Notes under the pieces: model-generated
The model's database searches: none
What the model saw: only the letters and a program-made list of their open reading frames with translations
Told to the model about the DNA's origin: nothing
Made by a program: the position numbers and the translations under genes
Virus record (IMG/VR): IMGVR_UViG_3300044941_000276
Coordinates: 32,001 to 96,000 of that record
Strand: one strand, 5' to 3'
From: a virus
DNA length: 64,000 nucleotides
In this document: positions 48,421 to 58,074 of the stretch, piece after piece
Layout: every line of letters begins with the position of its first letter
Numbering within the stretch: position 1 is the stretch's first letter

Positions 48421-48872
48421 TGTATCTTATCTCTGTATTTCTTTATACGATTACCTTGAAAAAACATATCGGGATTTATCCAAAAAACATCTTTTATTAC
48501 TGTTGGAGAAATAAATCCATATCGGATCAATTCATCTCTTGCTTTAGTGTAAGTGTTATAAGATAAATTTTGTTCTTTAAGATAGCGATCTTTATTAATA
48601 TAAACCCAATCACAACCCTCATCTATTTCAAATATTAACCAAAGAAAAAGTCTTTGAGAACATGAGGATAGATCGTTTACAATCTTTCTACGTTCACTCG
48701 AAACAAATATTTTAGTAAAACGCGTAGCTTCCAACTCTATAATCTCTTTTACTAAAACATCATCATCCATCACATAATTTTTTCCTTTTATTTTATTTAC
48801 AGGAATGGATAAAGAGTTAACAAAAGGATTTTTACCTAATAAAGATTGATCTATTGATTTATTCTTTTTCAT
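48417..48872 (-). CDS. RepL-like winged-helix replication/maintenance protein
   Basis: FTKIF..LFLWL..LSYNTYTKARDELIRYGFI..FWINPDMFFQG. Confidence 0.7.
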   Translation of the reverse strand: MKKNKSIDQSLLGKNPFVNSLSIPVNKIKGKNYVMDDDVLVKEIIELEATRFTKIFVSSERRKIVNDLSSCSQRLFLWLIFEIDEGCDWVYINKDRYLKEQNLSYNTYTKARDELIRYGFISPTVIKDVFWINPDMFFQGNRIKKYRDKIQ

Positions 48873-48877
48873 TTGTG

Positions 48878-48885
48878 CAAAGCTA
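48878..48885 (-). promoter_or_regulatory. Bacteroidota -7 element immediately before RepL-like ATG (possible leaderless mRNA)
   Basis: Minus strand reads TAGCTTTG-cacaa-ATG. Confidence 0.45.
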
Positions 48886-48900
48886 ACACATATATGTATA

Positions 48901-49214
48901 TTATCATATAGTTATCATATAGATATTATCAAAATTTTGTGAGTTTTATAAAATACTATACATCTCACAAATGAGCGGTCACAAAAAATAGGGTCACAAA
49001 AAATTGTGAAATCGAAAAAGTCAAAAAATTGCTTAATCAGATATATGAGAGTAACAAAAAATGACAAAAAAAATTCAAAAAAGAACCGTCTTATAGCTTT
49101 AAGGGTATACTCGAGTAGGTCAATTTTTGGTCAAAAAACGATTGATGAGCTATATAAAAGTAAACTTTTCTCTTTTTTTCTACTCACAAAAAATTGTGAG
49201 AAAAATGTGAGATG
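48901..49214. repeat. Iteron-like direct/inverted repeats at the strand switch
   Basis: TTATCATATAG x2 (48901-22); GGTCACAAAAAAT x2 (48977, 48992); CTCACAAAAAATTGTGAG (49183); inverted TTTTGTGAG (48935) and ATGTGAGATG (49205). Confidence 0.65.
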
Positions 49215-49356
49215 GGTTCTCTAATGTTGTTTAAAGTACATCAAACGAATTTTTTTATTTTTTTATTTTTTTATTTTTTGTTTTTTGTTGAGGGAATATT
49301 TGGTCTGTACCCCCATCCTGCCCCGCTTGGGTTTGCAACTAAACACCATAAATTAT

Positions 49357-49647
49357 ATGAAATCTTACGAATTTGAATCCGGTGCTGAGTTCACCGGAGG
49401 CTCGCTCTTAGGGCGTATTGAAGTACAAGTTGAAACCTCGACGAAAGGGTCAGGTCTTAACAAAGGCAAGTGGCGCAATACTATAAAGCCGGTTGAAGTA
49501 ATCCTCACAAATAAGAAGACTGGGAAGAAAACGGCGTCTATCCGTGAGGCGTTCAATTCAAAGACTAAATTGGACGCCGGCACCTACACAGTAGGTGTCT
49601 ATGAAGCGGACATCAACAACAAATTGACAGCCTACCTGGCTTTGTAA
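49357..49647 (+). CDS. Hypothetical early protein
   Basis: ATG at 49357 after an A/T-rich leader; first gene after the strand switch. Confidence 0.65.
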   Translation: MKSYEFESGAEFTGGSLLGRIEVQVETSTKGSGLNKGKWRNTIKPVEVILTNKKTGKKTASIREAFNSKTKLDAGTYTVGVYEADINNKLTAYLAL

Positions 49648-49998
49648 GTCGGGTAGGTCCCCCTTCGGGGGTAAGTGTGCCTCAATCATTAGCCACATGA
49701 TGAGAGGCACAACCATACACTCGCCACACGGTGTATGGTAAGTAGCAAGTGTGGGCATATTTTCATTGTCTTGGTTGAAAATATGCTTCCCCAGATATCT
49801 GGGAGTGGGTTTTTTTAAAAAATCCAAGACATCCACCCCTCAGTCCGAGTGAGGGAGAGTGTGACCAAGTTGTTGTAACCATCCGACAACTTGGCACACG
49901 AGGTGGATTATGTAGGCAAATTGAAGACGCCTAATCTCGGAACGGGGTAAGCCGAAAACTCATAAAAAGAGTAGGCGTAAATTGAAAACGACTAGTTT
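49648..49998 (+). ncRNA. Structured non-coding segment 1 (hairpins + 3 pseudoknots)
   Basis: Consecutive stems; loop/downstream pairings ccacac/gtgtgg, tgtcttgg/ccaagaca and tccgag/ctcgga. Confidence 0.6.
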
Positions 49999-50256
49999 AT
50001 GACCAGGACTATCATATCGGAGGTGAACACAGCTCACCTTCATATGATCAAAGAAAGATTTGATCATGAGTACCCGCTACCAAACGGAGGGTACGTACTA
50101 TATTCGTTTTGCTCGTCGACATCAAAAGATATTGAAGCTTTAATCATTGTAGTAAAGAAAGAAAAGCTCATCAAATCGAGAGCTTTTCTTTTCACGGGGG
50201 AGGTTCTCCAATTGGAAAATTTCCTCGCTAAACATGGGATTGAAATATCCCTTTAG
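49999..50256 (+). CDS. Hypothetical protein
   Basis: 85-aa ORF. Confidence 0.55.
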   Translation: MTRTIISEVNTAHLHMIKERFDHEYPLPNGGYVLYSFCSSTSKDIEALIIVVKKEKLIKSRAFLFTGEVLQLENFLAKHGIEISL

Positions 50257-50905
50257 CGAGGTCTCCCCTTTTTTCCCCTTGCTGCCATTTAATGGGTAAA
50301 ACGGCAAGGGGGTTTTAAAGCCCTGTCAGGCGAAATTGAAGATGACAGGGCATCTTTCTCCCTACCTTGGGTAAGTAGGGAGATATTTTATACCCATCGT
50401 CGAGAGAGGATTCGACCCGTGTAAGCGAAGTGCTCTGGCCGGTCGCAGCACGGGTTGTTATCCATTTTTTACTCCTCACCTTGAGCAAGTGAGGGTGGGT
50501 GTTTGCTCACGTCCCTCAATCGGACTGCAAATGTAACGTCGTTATTTGATGGTTACTCAAGCCGGTTCGATGAGGGACACTTATTTGACTAAGACGGGGT
50601 CAGATAAGTAAAAATTAAACCGTCTCTGCCGAAAAGCTCGCGACGCGTTTTGCTCGCTGAGCATTGGCAGATTCCCCGAAAGGGGAAATTAGCGCCCCTT
50701 AAGTGGGGCTTTAGCTTGTCCGTACCATACCGGACTTAAACATAGTATGGTAAGCCTTTGTACTAGGCTTTGATTGAGGGGTAAAACCCAAGAGAAGGTA
50801 CAAAGACCGTCACCTAGCATCGCTTTTTATGGCTTTAATCATGCTATAGGTAGAATCAGAAGACGGCGCGCACAGGGTTCTTTATGAGCTTCTTACCTGT
50901 GCAAA
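50257..50905 (+). ncRNA. Structured non-coding segment 2 (at least 4 pseudoknots, one AATTGAAGA hairpin)
   Basis: No ORF over about 650 nt; almost continuous inverted repeats; see findings. Confidence 0.65.
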
Positions 50906-50912
50906 ATAAGTT

Positions 50913-50986
50913 ACTCCCATAGCTCAACTGGATAGAGCAACTGCCTTCTAAGCAGTAGGTTGCAAGTTCGAATCTTGCTAGGGGTA
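50913..50986 (+). tRNA. tRNA-Arg(TCT)
   Basis: ACTCCCA-TAGCTCAACTGGATAGAGCA-ACTGC-cttctaa-GCAGT...GCAAG-TTCGAAT-CTTGC-TAGGGGT-A; one acceptor mismatch, no encoded CCA. Confidence 0.9.
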
Positions 50987-51028
50987 CGATTAAAAAACCT
51001 AATCACAATTAAAAAAACAAAAAACGTT

Positions 51029-51445
51029 ATGAACAAGAACACATTCGTTTTTGTGATCACCATGTTGGTGGTCACAATCTTTTTGGCTGCCGCTGCGGTA
51101 GCCAAGCCCCGCCCGAAATGGGTGCGGGTTAGCCACTCTATCTTATCAACCGTTGACCGTATCGACCGAGATACGGTTGCAATTAAGCTCACCTTCGTCC
51201 GCTTTGACGGCGAAGGTCGTCCTACTATTGGTCAAAATTTGGGTCACTTTATTATAGAAGTGGCCTTCACAGTCGACCGCTCAGAGGCGGTACGCATTTT
51301 AAACGGCGGGCAGTTGTCCGCCAACGGGCATGTCCTCGCCCGTATAAGCGAGGGCACCAAAATAATTCGTGACCCTGAGGGTCGCGAAATCCGCCGTATG
51401 AAAGCGGCGGATATCTGCAAGATCCTTTATGGGTCTTCAGAGTAA
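51029..51445 (+). CDS. Exported protein with signal peptide
   Basis: ATG 51029, MNKNTFVFVITMLVVTIFLAAAAVA; the longer ORF call overlaps the tRNA. Confidence 0.7.
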   Translation: MNKNTFVFVITMLVVTIFLAAAAVAKPRPKWVRVSHSILSTVDRIDRDTVAIKLTFVRFDGEGRPTIGQNLGHFIIEVAFTVDRSEAVRILNGGQLSANGHVLARISEGTKIIRDPEGREIRRMKAADICKILYGSSE

Positions 51446-51450
51446 AAAAG

Positions 51451-51485
51451 ACAAGGCGGTTTCTATGAAATCGCCTTGTTTTTTA
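51451..51485 (+). terminator. Intrinsic terminator
   Basis: ACAAGGCGGTTTC-tat-GAAATCGCCTTGT-TTTTTT. Confidence 0.8.
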
Positions 51486-52582
51486 TCAGGGTGAGAATCC
51501 CTGACAAGCCTGTGGGGCTCATGTCTTGCTAAGGCATTGTTGCACTTGTATAGGGGAAGAGTAGTAAAGTCGAGTAATATTGCTGCGTTAGGTAATACTA
51601 TAAGCATTATGAAAGAGGAATATCTATTTTGACTATATGGCGCAATGTCTGATCAAGCATTAGTGCGGACTCAAAAATCAGGCAGTGGTACAGCCTTAAT
51701 CTGTACAAATCTTTGTTTATCAAAGATTAACAAGGAAATAACCAATACCTTGTCCTAACTATGGGTAAAATAGTAGTCGTCCTTTTTTTAAATGTATTTT
51801 TTAAACCTGTACTATCGTCCCCGGATAGTACATCAATAGTGGCACAAGGAGGCCGCGAGGGGCGAAGACATATGGTCTTCAATGTTTAACAAATCGTGGT
51901 ATTGAGCTAGACCACGTTGAAATAGTTAGCTCGCCTGTCCACAAACACGGAGGTGTGACAGGTTCATGGGAGAAGAAGAGGCCGTCAATATTAAACGACG
52001 TGTCTCTAAAGAGAAAAGGGTTTCCGTGTTGCGACTGAATCTCATGTCGCACAAGTTAACGACTTGACCCGAGATATATGTAGCTCTATACATTAACAAT
52101 AACTACGTCAACAATAGATGTAGGGAGTGGTGTATATCTATATATGTACGATTTGAGACTGGACAACTCAAATCAATATGTACAATGTCCAATAGCCGTA
52201 CGCCACAACGGCTATGATATCTTAAGATATAGGTCGATATTAAAAGACCTTATCTTAGATATAATTATTTTAGTCAAGGGCATGAATCGGGGTTGACATC
52301 CCGATAAGGGTATGGAGTAAAGACCATACTTGAAAACGTCAGCGTCCGATAATCAAATCAACAATAGATTTGAGGAGGACGTTAAGGCGAATTGAAGTCG
52401 CCGTCATTTTTCTATCCTGTACGGATAGTTGTCAAAGTCGACCATGGGACTAAGACGTAAAAACAGAAAGAAGCCTAAGTCGTGCGATGCTTCGCATCGA
52501 TATGGTGAGCGCTCATGGTTATAGTAGGAGACTACGACAATGTCGTATGTCGTTATTACTACTGAATAAGTCCGAAAGGACT
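51486..52582 (+). ncRNA. Large structured non-coding segment 3 (about 1.1 kb)
   Basis: No ORF of 60 aa or more; dense hairpins; at least 4 pseudoknots; ends at the hammerhead. Confidence 0.65.
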
Positions 52583-52638
52583 CTGTCGTCTATGTGCGTG
52601 GCTGTGCATAGGCCTGATGAGGGGTTAACCCGAAACAG
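52583..52638 (+). ncRNA. Type III hammerhead ribozyme
   Basis: CTGTC|GTCTATGTGC-gtggct-GTGCATAGGC-CTGATGA-GGG-gttaa-CCC-GAAACAG: full CUGAUGA/GAAA core, stems I-III, GUC cleavage site after 52587. Confidence 0.85.
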
Positions 52639-52728
52639 TATTGCCCGCGTAAAATAAGACTGCGTTAAGGTCTTGTGAGTGATGCGTGCCCACTCAGAAC
52701 GGCATTAATTTTTTATCCAAAATTGAAG

Positions 52729-53853
52729 ATGGATAGAAAATTAATTAACGCCCTAGAATGCGAAAAGTATATACAGAAAAAACTTTTCGCGTTCAACGCC
52801 GGCAAGACGCTGGCTAGGGCGTGGAACGCGGGGGAAAATTGTCTTCTTACCGGACCTGGTGGGTACGGTAAGACGGACGGAGCTGCTTTGTTCTTTGAGT
52901 ATCTCAAAGAACAAGGGGCTTTGTCTGACGAACGTCCATACGTATTGGCGTTCGGACAGGGCATGACTGAGGAAAGGTTATTCGCTGGGTTGGATATCAA
53001 ACGCTTTCAGAATGAAGGCGAATTGGTGTACAACCTGAAGAAGGCCTTCGTATCCTTCGAATATGTAATATTCGAGGAAATGTTCGACGCATTTCCTGGG
53101 GTATTGCTTATTCTGAAGGATGTTCTTCAGTCTAAGAGCGTACGGTTAGGCGACACCGTATTTCCCTTGCGAACTAAATTTATAGTCGCCTGTACCAACC
53201 GTAGCAATGAGGAAGTCGCTACGGATAGAAGTACATGGGCTCTTTTAGAAAGATTCGTCTTTCAAAAAGAGGTAACCTGGACTTCGTGGGAAAAGTCCGA
53301 CTACCTCTCGGCTTTCGAGGCAGCCACAGGCCAGAAAGCTGATTCCGTAATGGAGGCTGTGGCAAGAATAGCTGCTGCCAGCAGCAAAGGTGAGATGAAG
53401 ATCTCGCCTCGTACTGCTGGTAAAGGTCTTAAGGCAGTAAAACAAAACGGTAACGACATTACCGTTTTGGAAGACATTCTCGGCTTCGATAAGAAGTCGG
53501 TAAGAGAAGTCTTCACTGCTATGGAAGGCATAGCAGCAGACAAGGCTCAACGTGACCACGTAGCTGCGGTGGTCGCGTTATGTAAGCAGACAGCAGCTAC
53601 TTCTTCGAATTCCGCCATTAAATTGGCGGTTGCCGCTAAACGAGTTCACGTAGAACTCGAAAAACTTAGTGGAATTCAACGTCGTGATGCGAACGTTGAA
53701 TTGTTCGAGGAAAGCATCATTGTCATAGAGAATCTGAGGGAGTCTCTATGGCAAAGAGCCAAGTCCCTTATTAACAAGCCACCAGTTGGCAGCTTGGCAG
53801 AGTTTATACAAAACTCTAGCACAAGCTCATTCGACTGGAGCTTGTTGAGATAA
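52729..53853 (+). CDS. MoxR/RavA-like AAA+ ATPase
   Basis: GPGGYGKT Walker A, YVIFEE Walker B, ACTN sensor 1, ALLERF, ISPR; likely ATG 52729. Confidence 0.85.
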   Translation: MDRKLINALECEKYIQKKLFAFNAGKTLARAWNAGENCLLTGPGGYGKTDGAALFFEYLKEQGALSDERPYVLAFGQGMTEERLFAGLDIKRFQNEGELVYNLKKAFVSFEYVIFEEMFDAFPGVLLILKDVLQSKSVRLGDTVFPLRTKFIVACTNRSNEEVATDRSTWALLERFVFQKEVTWTSWEKSDYLSAFEAATGQKADSVMEAVARIAAASSKGEMKISPRTAGKGLKAVKQNGNDITVLEDILGFDKKSVREVFTAMEGIAADKAQRDHVAAVVALCKQTAATSSNSAIKLAVAAKRVHVELEKLSGIQRRDANVELFEESIIVIENLRESLWQRAKSLINKPPVGSLAEFIQNSSTSSFDWSLLR

Positions 53854-53931
53854 TCGTTAACCCAATCTCTTGGGTTTGACTTGCATATAAGGTTAATCGT
53901 AAAAGCAAGGTAGTTATAATTTTATGGGGTT

Positions 53932-55161
53932 ATGAAAAAAAGAACCATACCCCACCATCTGTACGTTGAGCCTACGCGGCGAGACGTACAAGAAAGATTT
54001 AAGGAGTTAGGTTTTGATAAAACCTACTCTTATGATCTCGTACGGGATATTGCTAATGCGATGTCTCACGTACAGAATGGTGGGAAAGTCACTGACGCAA
54101 TGACCAACGTCAGTGATTGGGTTCTTCCTTCTGACTATAAGTCAGAGAGGGAATATCAAAGAGCACTCTCGTATCACGAGAATGTTCAAAGATTTATTTC
54201 TTCTCTTGACTTTGACAAGTTCAGTGGCAATACTCCGCTTGCAAAAGCGGCAAGTGTTGTAGCTGCACTGTCTAGTCAAGAAGGGGGACAAGGCGAGGAG
54301 GGTGATGGTCAACCCTTGCCAATCTTCCGAGGTTCGTCAGAATCTATGGAAGAAAAGGCTAAAAAGTTGGAAGAGGCAGTTGATCAAACTGTCGAGGCCA
54401 ATAAAAGCCTTGCGAGGTACATCATCAATCCTGATGAGGCCTCCCCAGAGGTGGCTCTCGCGACCTTGAACAGCGAGAATCGGGACCTCTTAGCCAAGTT
54501 AGCGCTACTTGGTGACAGGGGTAAGATACGTTCACAGCGCACTTCTCCCACAAACAAACTCACTCAAATGAGTGAGTATTCACAGGTGGGTCGTGTGAAT
54601 AATATGAGTAGTATGTTTCTCCCAACTTTCGGGTATAAATTTGCGACCAAGCAATTGGTTGTGAAAGAACCCGAACAATCAACGAGACAAACCCTTGTCT
54701 TATTGATTGACAACAGCGGTTCTATGGACGAGACCGACAAATTAAGTTGGGTCAAAGCCATAGTAGTTAACAGATTAGACGCTGTTAGTAAGGGAGAAGC
54801 TGAGTTGTATATCGGTTGGTTTGAATGTTCTCTTGATGAAGAGAACATTGTTAAAATTGCCAACAAAAAAGAAGCCATAGCTTTTTTACAAGAAGGCTTC
54901 TTGGGTAATTTTAACGGGGGAAAAACTGATATACAACGGGCCATTGAACAAGTTTGCGAGGGAATCAAACTTGGAAGGCTCGGTAATTATTCCCTCAACG
55001 GAGTTAAGCCTCAAATCGTTGTAATGAACGATGGGCAAGACTTTGTTGATAGCAATTATAAACCCAGTGTTGTGACTCACGGGTTTATCTTAGGGCGTGA
55101 CAATGACGGAATGAAGTCAATGATCGCCAATTGCGGAGGTCACTATGAGAGATTTTTATAA
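53932..55161 (+). CDS. VWA-domain protein
   Basis: LIDNSGSM MIDAS, GGKTD, NDGQD; adjacent to MoxR ATPase. Confidence 0.85.
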   Translation: MKKRTIPHHLYVEPTRRDVQERFKELGFDKTYSYDLVRDIANAMSHVQNGGKVTDAMTNVSDWVLPSDYKSEREYQRALSYHENVQRFISSLDFDKFSGNTPLAKAASVVAALSSQEGGQGEEGDGQPLPIFRGSSESMEEKAKKLEEAVDQTVEANKSLARYIINPDEASPEVALATLNSENRDLLAKLALLGDRGKIRSQRTSPTNKLTQMSEYSQVGRVNNMSSMFLPTFGYKFATKQLVVKEPEQSTRQTLVLLIDNSGSMDETDKLSWVKAIVVNRLDAVSKGEAELYIGWFECSLDEENIVKIANKKEAIAFLQEGFLGNFNGGKTDIQRAIEQVCEGIKLGRLGNYSLNGVKPQIVVMNDGQDFVDSNYKPSVVTHGFILGRDNDGMKSMIANCGGHYERFL

Positions 55162-55368
55162 TCTTTCTTTTCCCTATGCTCTACTAATAGGGATGTAAAA
55201 CGATAGTAGCTGGAAGAAAACTACCCTACCTCAGGGTTATGTGACTATAAGGGTTAATGGGTGCGCTACCATTAGAAATGTCACGCATATAAAAATCCTG
55301 CCATTGCAGGTTGAAGCACAAAACCTTACCCAGTTTTGTGTGTATATAACTCATGGGTAATAAAAGAC

Positions 55369-55614
55369 ATGGATAACTTTTTTCTTGAGTTATTTATTAT
55401 AACTCAACAAGAAAGAATTCAATCCGAGGGATTATTTTCTATCCTTTGCCGAATTGAAGAAGGCAAGGATATGAAGAAAATCCCTTTCCATTCTCAAAAA
55501 GAGATGGAAGATTTCCTCTGGTTAAACAGAGGGAATTATCTATTCATCTCTTTGGAAGAGGCTGGGCTATTAGTGTCCACCTCTCCATTTGAGAATGGAT
55601 TGGGAGTGAATTGA
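55369..55614 (+). CDS. Hypothetical protein (start 55369 or 55471)
   Basis: In-frame ATGs; the 55471 ATG directly follows an AATTGAAGA hairpin. Confidence 0.4.
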   Translation: MDNFFLELFIITQQERIQSEGLFSILCRIEEGKDMKKIPFHSQKEMEDFLWLNRGNYLFISLEEAGLLVSTSPFENGLGVN

Positions 55615-55798
55615 TTGGGGACCACCTGCACTAATCATCGGTGGGATATAAATAGAGGATTTTTTCTAACCATTCCATTTTGTAATATTACAAATAAAGG
55701 TTGAATCTGCGACAGGCATAGGGATATGTGCGAGTAATAGCAGAAGAGGAAGCCGAAAAGCTAAGTGAGTAGGCAATAACTATCCAAAAAATTGAAGA

Positions 55799-56116
55799 AT
55801 GGATATGATCAAGTTTTTATTTCCTCAGGTAGCCAAGTCTACCTTTGGAAAAAAGATGTTTAATCGCATAGCTCCTATCGTAGAAAGACTATGCGATGAA
55901 ACATCGATGATCGCAATGCCCTCAATCGCGATGTTTCTTACTTACCATCCCGGAGCTTCTGCTCCGCAGCAGATGGTATTTAATTATCTTGCAGAAGTCG
56001 CACTGCAAGGCAACTGGAGAGTATTTGTTGCGACGTATGGGGAACTCATTTCTCCTTCTGACCCATTGGCTGTATTGGGTCAAGACGGAAGAAAACAGTT
56101 CTTCCGACCAATGTGA
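55799..56116 (+). CDS. Hypothetical protein
   Basis: 105 aa; start codon at the loop/3-prime-arm junction of an AATTGAAGA hairpin. Confidence 0.6.
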   Translation: MDMIKFLFPQVAKSTFGKKMFNRIAPIVERLCDETSMIAMPSIAMFLTYHPGASAPQQMVFNYLAEVALQGNWRVFVATYGELISPSDPLAVLGQDGRKQFFRPM

Positions 56117-56463
56117 AGCTTTACGTCCTTAACTCTGCGGTAATGCCAGAAGATGGTTATTATCGCAGAGTTAAGATAAGTAGAGAGAAGGCTTCCGAGA
56201 TACTCAATACAGCCACAGAAATTGTATCTTCTGTTGGGTATCCGGAAGTTTGTCAAATATTACATGAAATATCAGGAGTTGTTGTTCCTCTTGATATTGA
56301 AAAGCGAGTAACAACATTTACTGAAGACGAGTGTACTATATTAGTATGTAAACTTGTCTTCAGGGAAAAAGCAGAACGAAAAGGAGTTAATCGTCATACC
56401 GACATTAACGAATATGAGTTCTGCTTAGTTCATTATAAAAAAAATAACCCTTTTATCAAATAA
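56113..56463 (+). CDS. DUF1874 / AcrIII-1 ring-nuclease family homolog
   Basis: LYVLNSAVMP..IS.E.A..L..IVSSVGYPEVCQIL..GVVVP..R..ILVCKL.FR matches the STIV B116/YddF layout; GY where GH is expected. Confidence 0.6.
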   Translation: MKLYVLNSAVMPEDGYYRRVKISREKASEILNTATEIVSSVGYPEVCQILHEISGVVVPLDIEKRVTTFTEDECTILVCKLVFREKAERKGVNRHTDINEYEFCLVHYKKNNPFIK

Positions 56464-56484
56464 ATAATAAAAGGGTTATTTTTT
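56440..56484 (+). terminator. Intrinsic terminator
   Basis: AAAAAATAACCCTTTTAT...ATAAAAGGGTTATTTTTT. Confidence 0.65.
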
Positions 56485-56517
56485 AATTCATTCAAATCAT
56501 AATCGTTTATCATTCAT

Positions 56518-56712
56518 ATGGAATTATATCCTATAGTAGAATGTTCAACAAAAGAAGGAGCGTCGCTTATTGTTTCTTTCTTTTGTGAAAAAGGTTTTGA
56601 CTTCTACTTTGTATTTACAGGTAATAAGAAACCTTATCTTGTAGTTACAAATAAGGAAGGTCTAAAAGCTTTTGAGCAATGGAATCATTCATTAGCAACA
56701 ATTGTTCATTAG
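56518..56712 (+). CDS. Small hypothetical protein
   Basis: 64-aa ORF. Confidence 0.5.
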   Translation: MELYPIVECSTKEGASLIVSFFCEKGFDFYFVFTGNKKPYLVVTNKEGLKAFEQWNHSLATIVH

Positions 56713-56765
56713 CAGGTTTCATTAACAACTTATTCACTTTTCATTAGCAATTTTCATTAGCAATT
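56688..56765 (+). repeat. Five TTCATTA(G/A)CA direct repeats
   Basis: Copies at 56688, 56705, 56718, 56740 and 56753. Confidence 0.75.
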
Positions 56766-56978
56766 ATGTATCAAGTCACAAAAAATATAAACGGAGTCTA
56801 TGCTGAGGCTACGTTTAAAACAAGAGAAGAGGCCTTGCGCCAAGCCACACGTTGGTTCGATTCCATGAACACTGATATTTCAGATTTATGCGGATCGTTC
56901 ATTAGCCGTATTGTTAGCGGTAAGAATATAACTTATAGATTTCAAAAAGCATCCTTAACAATAAGACATGAAAAATGA
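56766..56978 (+). CDS. Small hypothetical protein
   Basis: 70-aa ORF. Confidence 0.55.
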   Translation: MYQVTKNINGVYAEATFKTREEALRQATRWFDSMNTDISDLCGSFISRIVSGKNITYRFQKASLTIRHEK

Positions 56979-57198
56979 AATCTATGGGTCTTTTTCGTCA
57001 ATGACATTGACGGAAGAGGGAAAGTTGATTATAAATTTTCTATCGGACAATAACGAAAAGTTTATTGTTGAAATAGAATCTTTAATAAAAGAAGATGGTA
57101 GCGGAAGAAAATTTTTAATTAATCATAAACATGTAAACTCTATTAGCGGCTATGTTGACTTTGCTACTAATAAAGGTTACATAAAAATTAAAAATTAA
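56968..57198 (+). CDS. Small hypothetical protein
   Basis: 76-aa ORF. Confidence 0.55.
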   Translation: MKNEIYGSFSSMTLTEEGKLIINFLSDNNEKFIVEIESLIKEDGSGRKFLINHKHVNSISGYVDFATNKGYIKIKN

Positions 57199-57328
57199 AT
57201 TTTTACTTTTGTTGTTATTATAACAGCAAAGGTTTATTTGCGAACTCTTAACTCAATAAGTTAAACTAATTGACTTATAAAGAGTTACAAGTTCGTCTTG
57301 TAGAGCTCACCATCAAAAATCAGATTTT

Positions 57329-57469
57329 AGAGGTGGCGCTGGATGCGCCTTGGATGCTGGCAGGCGCGCGACTGTGCAACATCGGTACTGGCAAGAAGCT
57401 GAACGACGGTTCAGTGGATGTTAGCAAAGGGCTGCTCCCTTGAGGCCGGTTCGATTCCGGCCACCTCTA
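57329..57469 (+). ncRNA. Expanded tRNA-like RNA (about 140 nt)
   Basis: AGAGGTG/CACCTCT acceptor, perfect GCCGG-TTCGATT-CCGGC T arm, enlarged middle with no 7-nt anticodon loop. Confidence 0.7.
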
Positions 57470-57483
57470 CTTAAACAAACAAA

Positions 57484-57557
57484 GGGTCCATAGCTCAGCC
57501 GGTTAGAGCATCTGACTCATAATCAGGGGGTCGCAAGTTCGAGCCCTGCTGGACCCA
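57484..57557 (+). tRNA. tRNA with CAT anticodon (Ile2 or elongator Met)
   Basis: GGGTCCA/TGGACCC acceptor, TAGCTCAGCCGGTTAGAGC, TCTGA-ctcataa-TCAGG; T stem has one mismatch. Confidence 0.88.
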
Positions 57558-57598
57558 CAATCGTTCATTCACAAAAACCGCGACTGAGGTATCAGCAA

Positions 57599-57844
57599 AT
57601 GGATGAAAGTTCCTTTACAATTATGTATATGATAACGGTAGAAGTTTATGATTGTGAAAAAGGCACTAATCGCTATGCGATAAAAGCTGCCAACTTCGAA
57701 GAAGCTGTTGAAAGATATGAAGATATCAAATCACGCATCACCGTAAACTGGACTCGCCATCCAGCAATCACCGAAGAAATTAAACACCTCGATTGTACAT
57801 ACGATTCTTTTAATGAAGGTTGTATAATCATGTCTCGTGTTTAA
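57599..57844 (+). CDS. Small hypothetical protein
   Basis: 81-aa ORF; start may be a downstream ATG. Confidence 0.5.
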   Translation: MDESSFTIMYMITVEVYDCEKGTNRYAIKAANFEEAVERYEDIKSRITVNWTRHPAITEEIKHLDCTYDSFNEGCIIMSRV

Positions 57845-57852
57845 AAATATTA

Positions 57853-57955
57853 CCATCTATCGTCTAAGTAAGACGATTTGACAATCGCTTATAACAAAAA
57901 TTGAAGATTATAAGCAATTGTTAAATAAATACAGGTTCGTATCCTGTTAGATGGT
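57853..57955 (+). ncRNA. tRNA-like RNA whose anticodon arm is a 19-bp stem with a CAAAAATTGAAGA loop
   Basis: CCATCTA/TAGATGG acceptor; TC; GTCT-aagta-AGAC D arm; long arm; AAAT; ACAGG-TTCGTAT-CCTGT T arm. Confidence 0.75.
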
Positions 57956-58074
57956 CAATTAATCACCTGAGTTTAAGAGATTCACCCTAAGGTAACTGAC
58001 GTTAAACTTTTTGTCAGGAGAATAAGGTTATGACATAAGTCATAGGTGATTTAAGATTTTAAATTATTTATCGT

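Follow-up and report, generated by a model that had tools for sequence, protein, structure and literature searches.

The 64,000-nucleotide stretch of DNA analyzed here, hereafter the window, covers bases 32001-96000 in an IMG/VR virus record of 105.6 kb (IMGVR_UViG_3300044941_000276) whose terminase and portal genes are crAss-like. Our subject is a series of candidate H-type RNA pseudoknots on its + strand, PK1 to PK14, all of which lie in a GC-rich, hyper-structured RNA island at 49550..57350 that includes both coding and non-coding sequence. This island (~49.55-57.35 kb, ~7.8 kb), recognized by its GC content and by its folding z-score, is the sole GC-rich one in the 105.6-kb genome; its GC content is 0.41-0.45 versus ~0.31 elsewhere, and that of the window is ~31%. 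Large - strand genes stop near 48.9 kb, and + strand genes start there. The public sequencing runs that contain DNA of the window are labeled hot springs or microbial mat metagenome, and no RNA run is listed among them. A preceding inspection of the letters, referred to below as the sequence-only reading, had proposed a battery of at least 13 pseudoknots in this region, with antitoxin mimicry as a possible role.

The island is strongly folded throughout. Over 52 segments of 150 nt spanning 49.55-57.35 kb, the mean z-score is -4.18 on the + strand and -3.03 on the - strand (paired Wilcoxon p 1e-4), as against -0.2 in the rest of the window and -0.5 in a control, the early arm of the cultured crAss-like phage DAC15. 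Its + strand genes include those for a MoxR-like AAA ATPase (52729-53853; Pfam PF20030/PF07728) and a vWA protein (53932-55161; Pfam PF13519). Unexpectedly, the coding mRNAs in the island are folded as strongly as the non-coding RNAs, with z-scores of -13.7 for 52675-53300 (626 nt at the start of the MoxR-like gene) and -13.0 for an open reading frame (ORF) at 51030-51445. The MoxR-like and vWA genes and this 138-aa ORF, the product of which has a start resembling a signal peptide, consist of back-to-back stems of 8-16 bp, far beyond what is seen in normal mRNA. The gene-free stretches yielded no noteworthy ORFs when stop codons were reassigned.

Three of these stretches form folded non-coding RNAs on the + strand, designated A, B and C, which were compared with one closely related contig, L002/L003 (IMGVR_UViG_3300044940_000357), and with a few run contigs; the latter are DNA contigs from hot-spring or mat runs, two of which are possibly the source sample itself. 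RNA A (49648..49998), the leader of ORF 49999-50256, contains PK1-PK3, a hairpin with a AAUUGAAG loop and a DUF805b RNA motif (49942-49977, + strand; Rfam RF02914, 36.1 bits versus a gathering score of 35.6). Its z-score is -7.27, and it is 94.8% identical to L003, compared with 71% for the upstream ORF; indels of 4, 2 and 2 nt relative to L003 exclude a coding role. RNA B (50257..50912) extends to the 5' end of a tRNA-Arg (TCT) recognized by Rfam at 50913-50987 on the + strand, and contains PK4-PK7. It has a z-score of -7.37 over 50466-50912, its core (50474-50800) is 95.7% identical to L003 versus 81% and 75% in the flanking ORFs, and its hairpins carry compensatory changes. RNA C (51684..52728), which runs from a hatchet ribozyme to the MoxR start and contains PK9-PK11, has a z-score of -7.83 over 51750-52700 and is 96.6% identical to L003. 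Of its variable pairs, 14/18 still pair when read on the + strand, versus 3/18 on the - strand; its indels of 12, 2, 1 and 1 nt relative to L003 again exclude a coding role.

All 13 pairs of loop segment and downstream partner listed by the sequence-only reading are present at their positions in these RNAs and their surroundings, and their closing stems are indeed 5-11 bp long. Twelve of the 13 are perfectly complementary, and in the remaining one, #8 (tctgat/atcagg), one of the pairs has to be G.U. The pairs are, however, of unequal quality. Eight (#1, 4, 5, 6, 7, 9, 11 and 12) are well-formed candidates for compact H-type pseudoknots, #2 and #10 are plausible, and #3, #8 and #13 are weak. 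With the addition of PK14, which was absent from the earlier list, there are thus nine compact modules.

The classical H-type layout has a short loop across the deep groove of the second stem (S2) and a longer one along the first stem (S1). The nine compact modules conform to this layout: the 5' strand of S2 lies inside the S1 loop, the loop lengths suit spanning of the grooves, and S1 is 5-11 bp, L1 0-3 nt, S2 6-8 bp, L2 0-1 nt and the linker L3 7-13 nt. What they share is geometry, not sequence. The description of their linkers as A-rich is correct on the whole, the nine L3 segments being ~47% A by our own count, but does not extend to PK5, whose linker has no A. At 37 C the S2 duplexes are computed to contribute -6.7 to -8.9 kcal/mol, at 60 C -3.6 to -5.5 kcal/mol; the large-loop hairpins alone amount to -1.9 to -7.6 kcal/mol at 60 C, and S1 and S2 energies are similar.

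In RNA A, PK1 (49712..49754, + strand, as are all the candidates that follow) has an S1 of 9 bp, a loop of 10 nt, an L3 of 9 nt and the S2 CCACAC/GTGTGG; in relatives the AA of its linker is replaced by GT or AT, with S2 retained and a possible gain of a G.U pair. In RNA B, PK4 (50357..50396; S1 9 bp, loop CTTGGGTAA, L3 7 nt, S2 TGGGTA/TACCCA) behaves as an indel module, in that 48 nt (50358-50405) are absent from a contig of run X9 and 119 nt are absent in X7/L003. It is followed by PK5 (50473..50509; S1 6-7 bp, loop CTTGAGCAA, L3 8 nt, S2 TGAGCAA/TTGCTCA), by PK6 (50579..50625; S1 11 bp with one mismatch, loop TAAGACGGG, L3 AAAAATTAAA, S2 AGACGG/CCGTCT) and by PK7 (50718..50752; S1 5 bp), of which the last two are invariant in L003. 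The entire 8-nt loop of PK7, TACCATAC, is complementary to GTATGGTA past a 9-nt linker; because L1 would then be 0, the geometry suggests that the full 8-bp S2 is probably unable to form. RNA C contains PK9 (51895..51932; S1 6 bp, loop 10 nt, L3 TTGAAATAGT, S2 GAGCTA/TAGCTC), in which a G-to-A change beside S2 in L003 converts a U.G pair to U-A and brings S2 to 7 bp, and PK11 (52150..52191; S1 8 bp, loop 9 nt, L3 11 nt, S2 TGGACA/TGTCCA), which is invariant there.

The remaining two compact modules lie downstream of the vWA gene. PK12 (55171..55209; S1 7 bp, loop 9 nt, L3 10 nt, S2 CTACTA/TAGTAG) begins 10 nt past the vWA stop codon, is invariant in L003 and has the weakest S2 (-4.4 kcal/mol). 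A read-through or frameshift role was considered and dropped, as the extension after the vWA stop would be just ~15 codons. PK14 (55316..55360; S1 8-9 bp, loop CTTACCCA, L3 12-13 nt, S2 TTACCCA/TGGGTAA) ends 8 nt before the ATG at 55369, and a G-to-A change in L003 extends its S1 to 9 bp.

The two candidates with longer spacing are hairpins whose loops would pair with a segment farther downstream: in PK2 (49755..49831), a 10-bp hairpin, TGTCTTGG with CCAAGACA at 57 nt, and in PK10 (51934..52030), a bulged 9-bp hairpin, AACACGGA with TCCGTGTT at 79 nt. Their S2 duplexes are computed at -10.5 and -10.4 kcal/mol, respectively, and both are invariant in L003. The two are plausible candidates, but such 8-bp long-range loop pairings, two cases in 57 hairpins, are by our estimate only marginally above chance. 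In PK3 (49837..49941), the loop TCCGAG of a 6-bp hairpin is matched by CTCGGA 92 nt downstream; a 6-mer at this range is about at chance level, and in the minimum free energy (MFE) fold a nested closing stem takes the partner. Pair #8 falls inside the hatchet ribozyme (51482..51683) and is explained by it, because ATCAGG overlaps and clashes with the 3' strand of the conserved hatchet P2. In PK13 (55612..55644; S1 5 bp, S2 CCACC/GGTGG, 5 bp), which lacks H-type loop lengths, the 2-nt linker is too short to span the 5-bp S1.

To count such elements objectively, we used a motif scanner for compact H-type pseudoknots (perfect S1 of at least 5 bp, loop 7-13 nt, linker 5-16 nt, perfect S2 of at least 6 bp) in place of the pseudoknot-aware folding programs pKiss, IPknot and HotKnots. 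A comparison with dinucleotide-shuffled sequence, which the sequence-only reading had proposed as a check, came out strongly in favor of an excess: 49650-52675 contains 7 compact candidates, versus 0.19 +/- 0.44 (maximum 3) in 200 shuffles, and 55162-55800 contains 3, versus 0.08. Because shuffling removes hairpins too, a second control was run in which the real hairpins were kept fixed. In the island, a correctly spaced 3' partner exists for 16 of 121 hairpins, compared with 1.67 (maximum 5) when the partner windows are shifted 40-400 nt downstream, and 5 at the mirrored upstream position. The same control found no excess in the rest of the window, where 12/505 hairpins have a 3' partner versus 10.8 expected. 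Under the strict settings, the island holds 10 of the 13 + strand matches of the whole 105.6-kb genome, and the entire minus strand has 5; under relaxed settings, which admitted G.U pairs and one mismatch, the island, 7.4% of the genome, accounts for 15 of 42 matches. The DAC15 early arm gave 1 scanner match in 39.5 kb. Compact H-type candidates are thus enriched in the island, and the enrichment is directional. Further scanner candidates are found in coding sequence, at 51191, 51324, 53549, 53673, 53720, 54949, 55892 and 56268; those within the MoxR/vWA mRNA (52729..55161) span 53549-53600, 53673-53719, 53720-53770 and 54949-54996 on the + strand.

Scans of IMG/VR with the MoxR protein, a MoxR alignment and the terminase recovered one relative contig only, and a 15-mer from PK6 was found just in that L002/L003 contig, apart from chance matches. 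A search of genome contigs gave no relative; a phage collection gave only tRNA matches by DNA and no match by protein. MoxR protein homologues P0002-P0005 are 59-77% identical. Relative to L003, the non-coding segments that bear the pseudoknots are 94.8-98.5% identical, and the neighboring ORFs 71-89%. Where predicted pairs vary, 93/199 remain paired when read on the + strand, versus 46/199 on the - strand. This asymmetry of pair-keeping substitutions points to selection on + strand RNA structure.

The variation seen in the modules themselves follows the same direction. Neither L003 nor the listed variant letters of the run contigs (four runs) showed a substitution that breaks an S2, and the changes observed are in linkers or lengthen helices (PK1, PK9, PK14). 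S1 of PK5 carries a double compensatory change in L003. Moreover, PK4 aligns with PK5 as a paralogue, and in an alignment of PK4, PK5 and the L003 version of PK5 all 36 cells pair, with five pairs changed on both sides, two of them in S2. Changes on one side only, as in PK9, PK14 and PK1, are compatible with pairing, and the other helices are invariant. Covariation for the predicted pseudoknots themselves is thus thin, and never contrary. Among more distant sequences, MoxR homologues of 41-54% identity were found in 16 marine or estuarine metagenome loci, the transcripts of which are only mildly structured (mean z -1.5 to -2.7). None of these 16 loci has a pseudoknot battery; a single pseudoknot candidate at the marine MoxR 5' end is broken in L015, and was discarded as a probable chance match.

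We propose that the compact modules are real, modular H-type pseudoknots that serve as structural locks of conserved, self-processing phage RNAs, with a role in stability or nuclease resistance, and we assign this proposal a probability of about 50%. Its basis is the sequence pattern with its enrichment and direction, the constraint on the + strand, the compensatory changes, the S2 energies and the conservation in the one relative; it also fits the uniform geometry combined with free sequence, the indel behavior of PK4, the hot-spring origin and the hyper-structure of the whole island. According to this proposal, the modules, set in RNAs A, B and C and in the short spacers after the vWA gene, would reside on one ~7.8-kb + strand transcript region, in which the hatchet, RNase P/Z acting at the tRNA, and probably a hammerhead would make the cuts. 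In each module, the 8-10-nt loop of a 5-11-bp hairpin would be clamped, past an A/U-rich linker of 7-13 nt, to the next single strand by 6-8 bp. The clamp would tie up loop and linker nucleotides that are otherwise single-stranded, and would strengthen, by several kcal/mol, hairpins of little stability at high temperature. The resulting compact knots would hold the RNA fold and leave less of it accessible to single-strand-specific nucleases and exonucleases. The benefit would thus be thermal or nuclease stability, rather than the binding of a specific ligand or protein. Alongside mimicry, the sequence-only reading had also offered tertiary contacts of an ornate RNA or nuclease-blocking elements; these suggestions agree with the location of the modules inside three strongly folded, conserved RNAs of a hyper-structured island interspersed with ribozymes and a tRNA, while the functional part of them is a matter of inference.

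Several observations weigh against structural locks. Nested folds compete for the 3' partners of PK5, PK6, PK9 and PK11, and PK4 is evidently dispensable in natural variants. The PK4/PK5 covariation comes from three sequences only, and the structure was derived from these same sequences; most S2 helices show no variation in the one relative and the few run contigs, and are therefore uninformative either way. The invariance of several linkers might also count here, as generic armor should let linkers drift more freely.

One alternative is the idea raised originally, namely that the pseudoknots, as decoys or mimics, bind and neutralize either the host's type III toxins (ToxN/CptN/TenpN/AbiQ) or further RNases. 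Antitoxins of type III consist of direct repeats of ~34-45 nt arranged in tandem, which fold into H-type pseudoknots once processed by the toxin, and some of them, such as CptI, have an A-rich long loop (PMC5086642). The modules of the island are H-type and of similar size, and the A-rich long loop of CptI has a counterpart in them; there is also a phage precedent, the known mimic being a pseudo-ToxI repeat (PMC3475682), and the island region holds candidate genes for host takeover (MoxR-vWA). Antitoxin repeats are, however, identical and in tandem, whereas the units of the island are non-repeated, unrelated in sequence and scattered among helices. Neither Tandem Repeats Finder (score >=30) nor a direct-repeat search detected a tandem or direct-repeat array in 49.6-55.7 kb, and none was found in 49-58 kb. 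No antitoxin-type Rfam family reaches its threshold, and there is no ToxI-type match even at E up to 10; the only signal is a weak OrzO-P match (22.8 bits versus a gathering score of 60) inside ORF 49999-50256. Nor do the modules have in common the single-stranded flanking tails with toxin cut sites. Lastly, the same architecture also occurs within coding sequence, which a general folding rule fits better than a library of decoys. The claim of mimicry of ToxI, CptI or antiQ thus has no positive support, and we hold a decoy function, mimicry of a hitherto undescribed host antitoxin included, to be very improbable.

Three further explanations concern the modules as structures. They might act as directional roadblocks that define or protect the ends released by the tRNA and the ribozymes, by analogy with the exonuclease-resistant RNAs (xrRNAs) of RNA viruses. 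In size and layout (loop to 3' segment, 35-47 nt) they resemble the plant-virus xrRNAs described in PMC11702639; they are carried by RNAs bounded by the tRNA-Arg, the hatchet and the hammerhead-like core, and PK12 starts directly after the vWA gene, 10 nt past its stop codon. Nevertheless, modules are not consistently located at domain ends, and we consider such a stalling function unlikely. A similarly low likelihood applies to regulatory switches, in which S1 and S2 would be mutually exclusive helices of the thermosensor or attenuator type and not the simultaneous stems of a pseudoknot. That S1 and S2 are alike in energy, that the nested MFE fold of PK9 has S2 instead of S1, that competing helices exist for several partners, and that 8 nt separate the end of PK14 from a start codon would all be understandable on this basis. 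Yet loop and linker lengths suit simultaneous H-type stacking in all nine modules, most of which are distant from start codons and terminators, and at least nine independent switches in 3.6 kb of non-coding RNA would not be parsimonious. Finally, the modules could have no function of their own, as a by-product of dense local inverted repeats or a feature at the DNA level. Hairpins are very dense in the island, with 121 in 7.8 kb, its z-scores are negative on the minus strand too, and most S2 helices are without variation; hairpin density, however, is already allowed for by the controls within the same island (1.67 for shifted and 5 for mirrored positions, versus 16 observed), the strand asymmetry in z and in pair-preserving substitutions points to + strand RNA, and the geometry is uniform over the modules. 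We deem this last explanation quite improbable.

A more speculative extension of the structural-lock proposal, and one we hold to be doubtful, is that the whole 7.8-kb island is an 'armored' transcript, in which mRNAs and spacers alike are folded too tightly for the single-strand-specific RNases and RNA-guided defenses of the host. Hairpins and compact pseudoknots would then be bacterial counterparts of xrRNAs, within an ordered structure of genome scale like that of some RNA viruses; self-cleaving ribozymes and the tRNA would release pieces with protected ends, and abortive-infection toxins as well as CRISPR of type III or type VI could be among the defenses countered.

Rows of stabilizing H-type pseudoknots with an A-rich loop 3 are found in transfer-messenger RNA (tmRNA), as PK1-PK4, and in the upstream pseudoknot domain that precedes the tRNA-like end of tobamoviruses. 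These are perhaps the nearest analogues in function. As in the island, they are small two-stem pseudoknots in a row, with a short loop 1 and a longer, A-rich loop 3, near a tRNA or tRNA-like element; PK4-PK7 of the island fall within the 650 nt ahead of the tRNA-Arg. The island differs in being part of a dsDNA phage transcript, with no sequence relation and no function as tmRNA or tRNA-like structure. In context, the nearest analogues would be GOLLD and ROOL, which are large ornate RNAs encoded by phages and prophages, contain several pseudoknots and often lie beside tRNA genes (PMC5737381). Like these, the RNAs of the island are large and folded, RNA B (~650 nt) ending at the tRNA-Arg and RNA C being ~1 kb long; in the island, however, the neighboring mRNAs are hyper-structured as well, and its RNAs are not known to be conserved across several phyla. 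With an E limit of 10 for 49600-52760 and of 1 for 48500-58000, no match to GOLLD, ROOL or another large-RNA Rfam family was obtained. Similarly, preQ1-I, pistol and other small pseudoknotted families gave no + strand match, the sole PreQ1 hit being on the minus strand (17.5 bits versus 39). With the xrRNAs of plant and animal RNA viruses (PMC11702639), the modules share a short hairpin, a loop that pairs with a 3' segment, and a compact knot; those xrRNAs, though, act against the eukaryotic Xrn1 and are defined by a ring-like fold around the 5' end. H-type pseudoknots and folded phage RNAs are both familiar. For a dense, direction-specific battery in a region of a DNA phage with hyper-folded mRNAs, we found no description in the literature searched and no counterpart in the cultured control phage. 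If the modules form, they would constitute a set of small, sequence-diverse and probably heat-stable RNA locks, and a natural system in which to study how a phage protects or organizes a self-processing transcript.

The hatchet ribozyme that precedes RNA C (51482..51683, + strand; Rfam RF02678) scores 70.3 bits versus a gathering score of 51. It has the stems P1-P4 and, upstream of them, a P0-like hairpin at 51448-51480; an upstream P0 hairpin has been described as a hatchet feature (PMC4604424). The unit that contains it (~51485-51757, ~275 nt) is absent from L003 (site L003:6975-7075), and may therefore be excised or mobile as one piece. Two hairpins sharing one stem (ACAAGG...CCTTGT) flank it, of which the first is P0, followed by a T-run, and the second is a P0-like hairpin at the end of the unit. 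A second putative ribozyme, the hammerhead-like core at 52583..52638 on the + strand, was read from the sequence ~90 nt before the MoxR start as CUGAUGA ... GAAA with a GUC triplet. It consists of the GUC, a 10-bp stem I, CUGAUGA, a 3-bp stem II, GAAA and a short stem III, and has a weak match to the Rfam family Hammerhead_II (16.5 bits versus a gathering score of 37).

Eight of the metagenome loci (L004, L006, L007, L008, L010, L015, L018 and L019) have a hatchet ~55 nt upstream of the MoxR start. Their MoxR homologues are 41-54% identical. These loci reveal a conserved hatchet-MoxR-vWA linkage, and the hammerhead-like core of the window occupies the place equivalent to that of the hatchet in the marine relatives. 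That a hatchet, or a hammerhead in its stead, is tied to MoxR-vWA pairs in distant phages provides a testable context for an orphan ribozyme class.

Other features of the island and its vicinity were noted in passing. A second, sub-threshold copy of the DUF805b motif lies at 55743-55775 (32.1 bits), and the relative carries an extra cassette of ~600 nt (L003:5026-5622), flanked by two DUF805b copies (46.4 and 43.7 bits), where the window has a single copy. The segment 57200-57480, before a tRNA-Met detected by Rfam at 57484-57557, is strongly structured (z -10.5) and includes a weak tmRNA match at 57329-57472 (19.9 bits); L003:12534-12603, the counterpart of ~57242-57311, scores as a tRNA (35.8 bits). 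The ORF at 56113-56463 has a match (E 5.7e-08) to PF08960, the STIV B116-like family, so named for a protein of a hot-spring archaeal virus. The sequence AATTGAAG is repeated in + strand hairpin loops at 49919, 50334, 52390, 52721, 55452, 55790, 57899 and 58170; all eight of these copies fall within 49.9-58.2 kb, several of them immediately before or over a start codon, and there is one further + strand copy in the window. At the corresponding position ahead of the MoxR ATG, marine relatives have AATAGAAGA in a hairpin. Lastly, RNA C contains two paralogous 7-bp hairpins (52097-52127 and 52347-52377), 250 nt apart, the stems of which covary; the loop AACAATA is common to both and is followed by GGAG.

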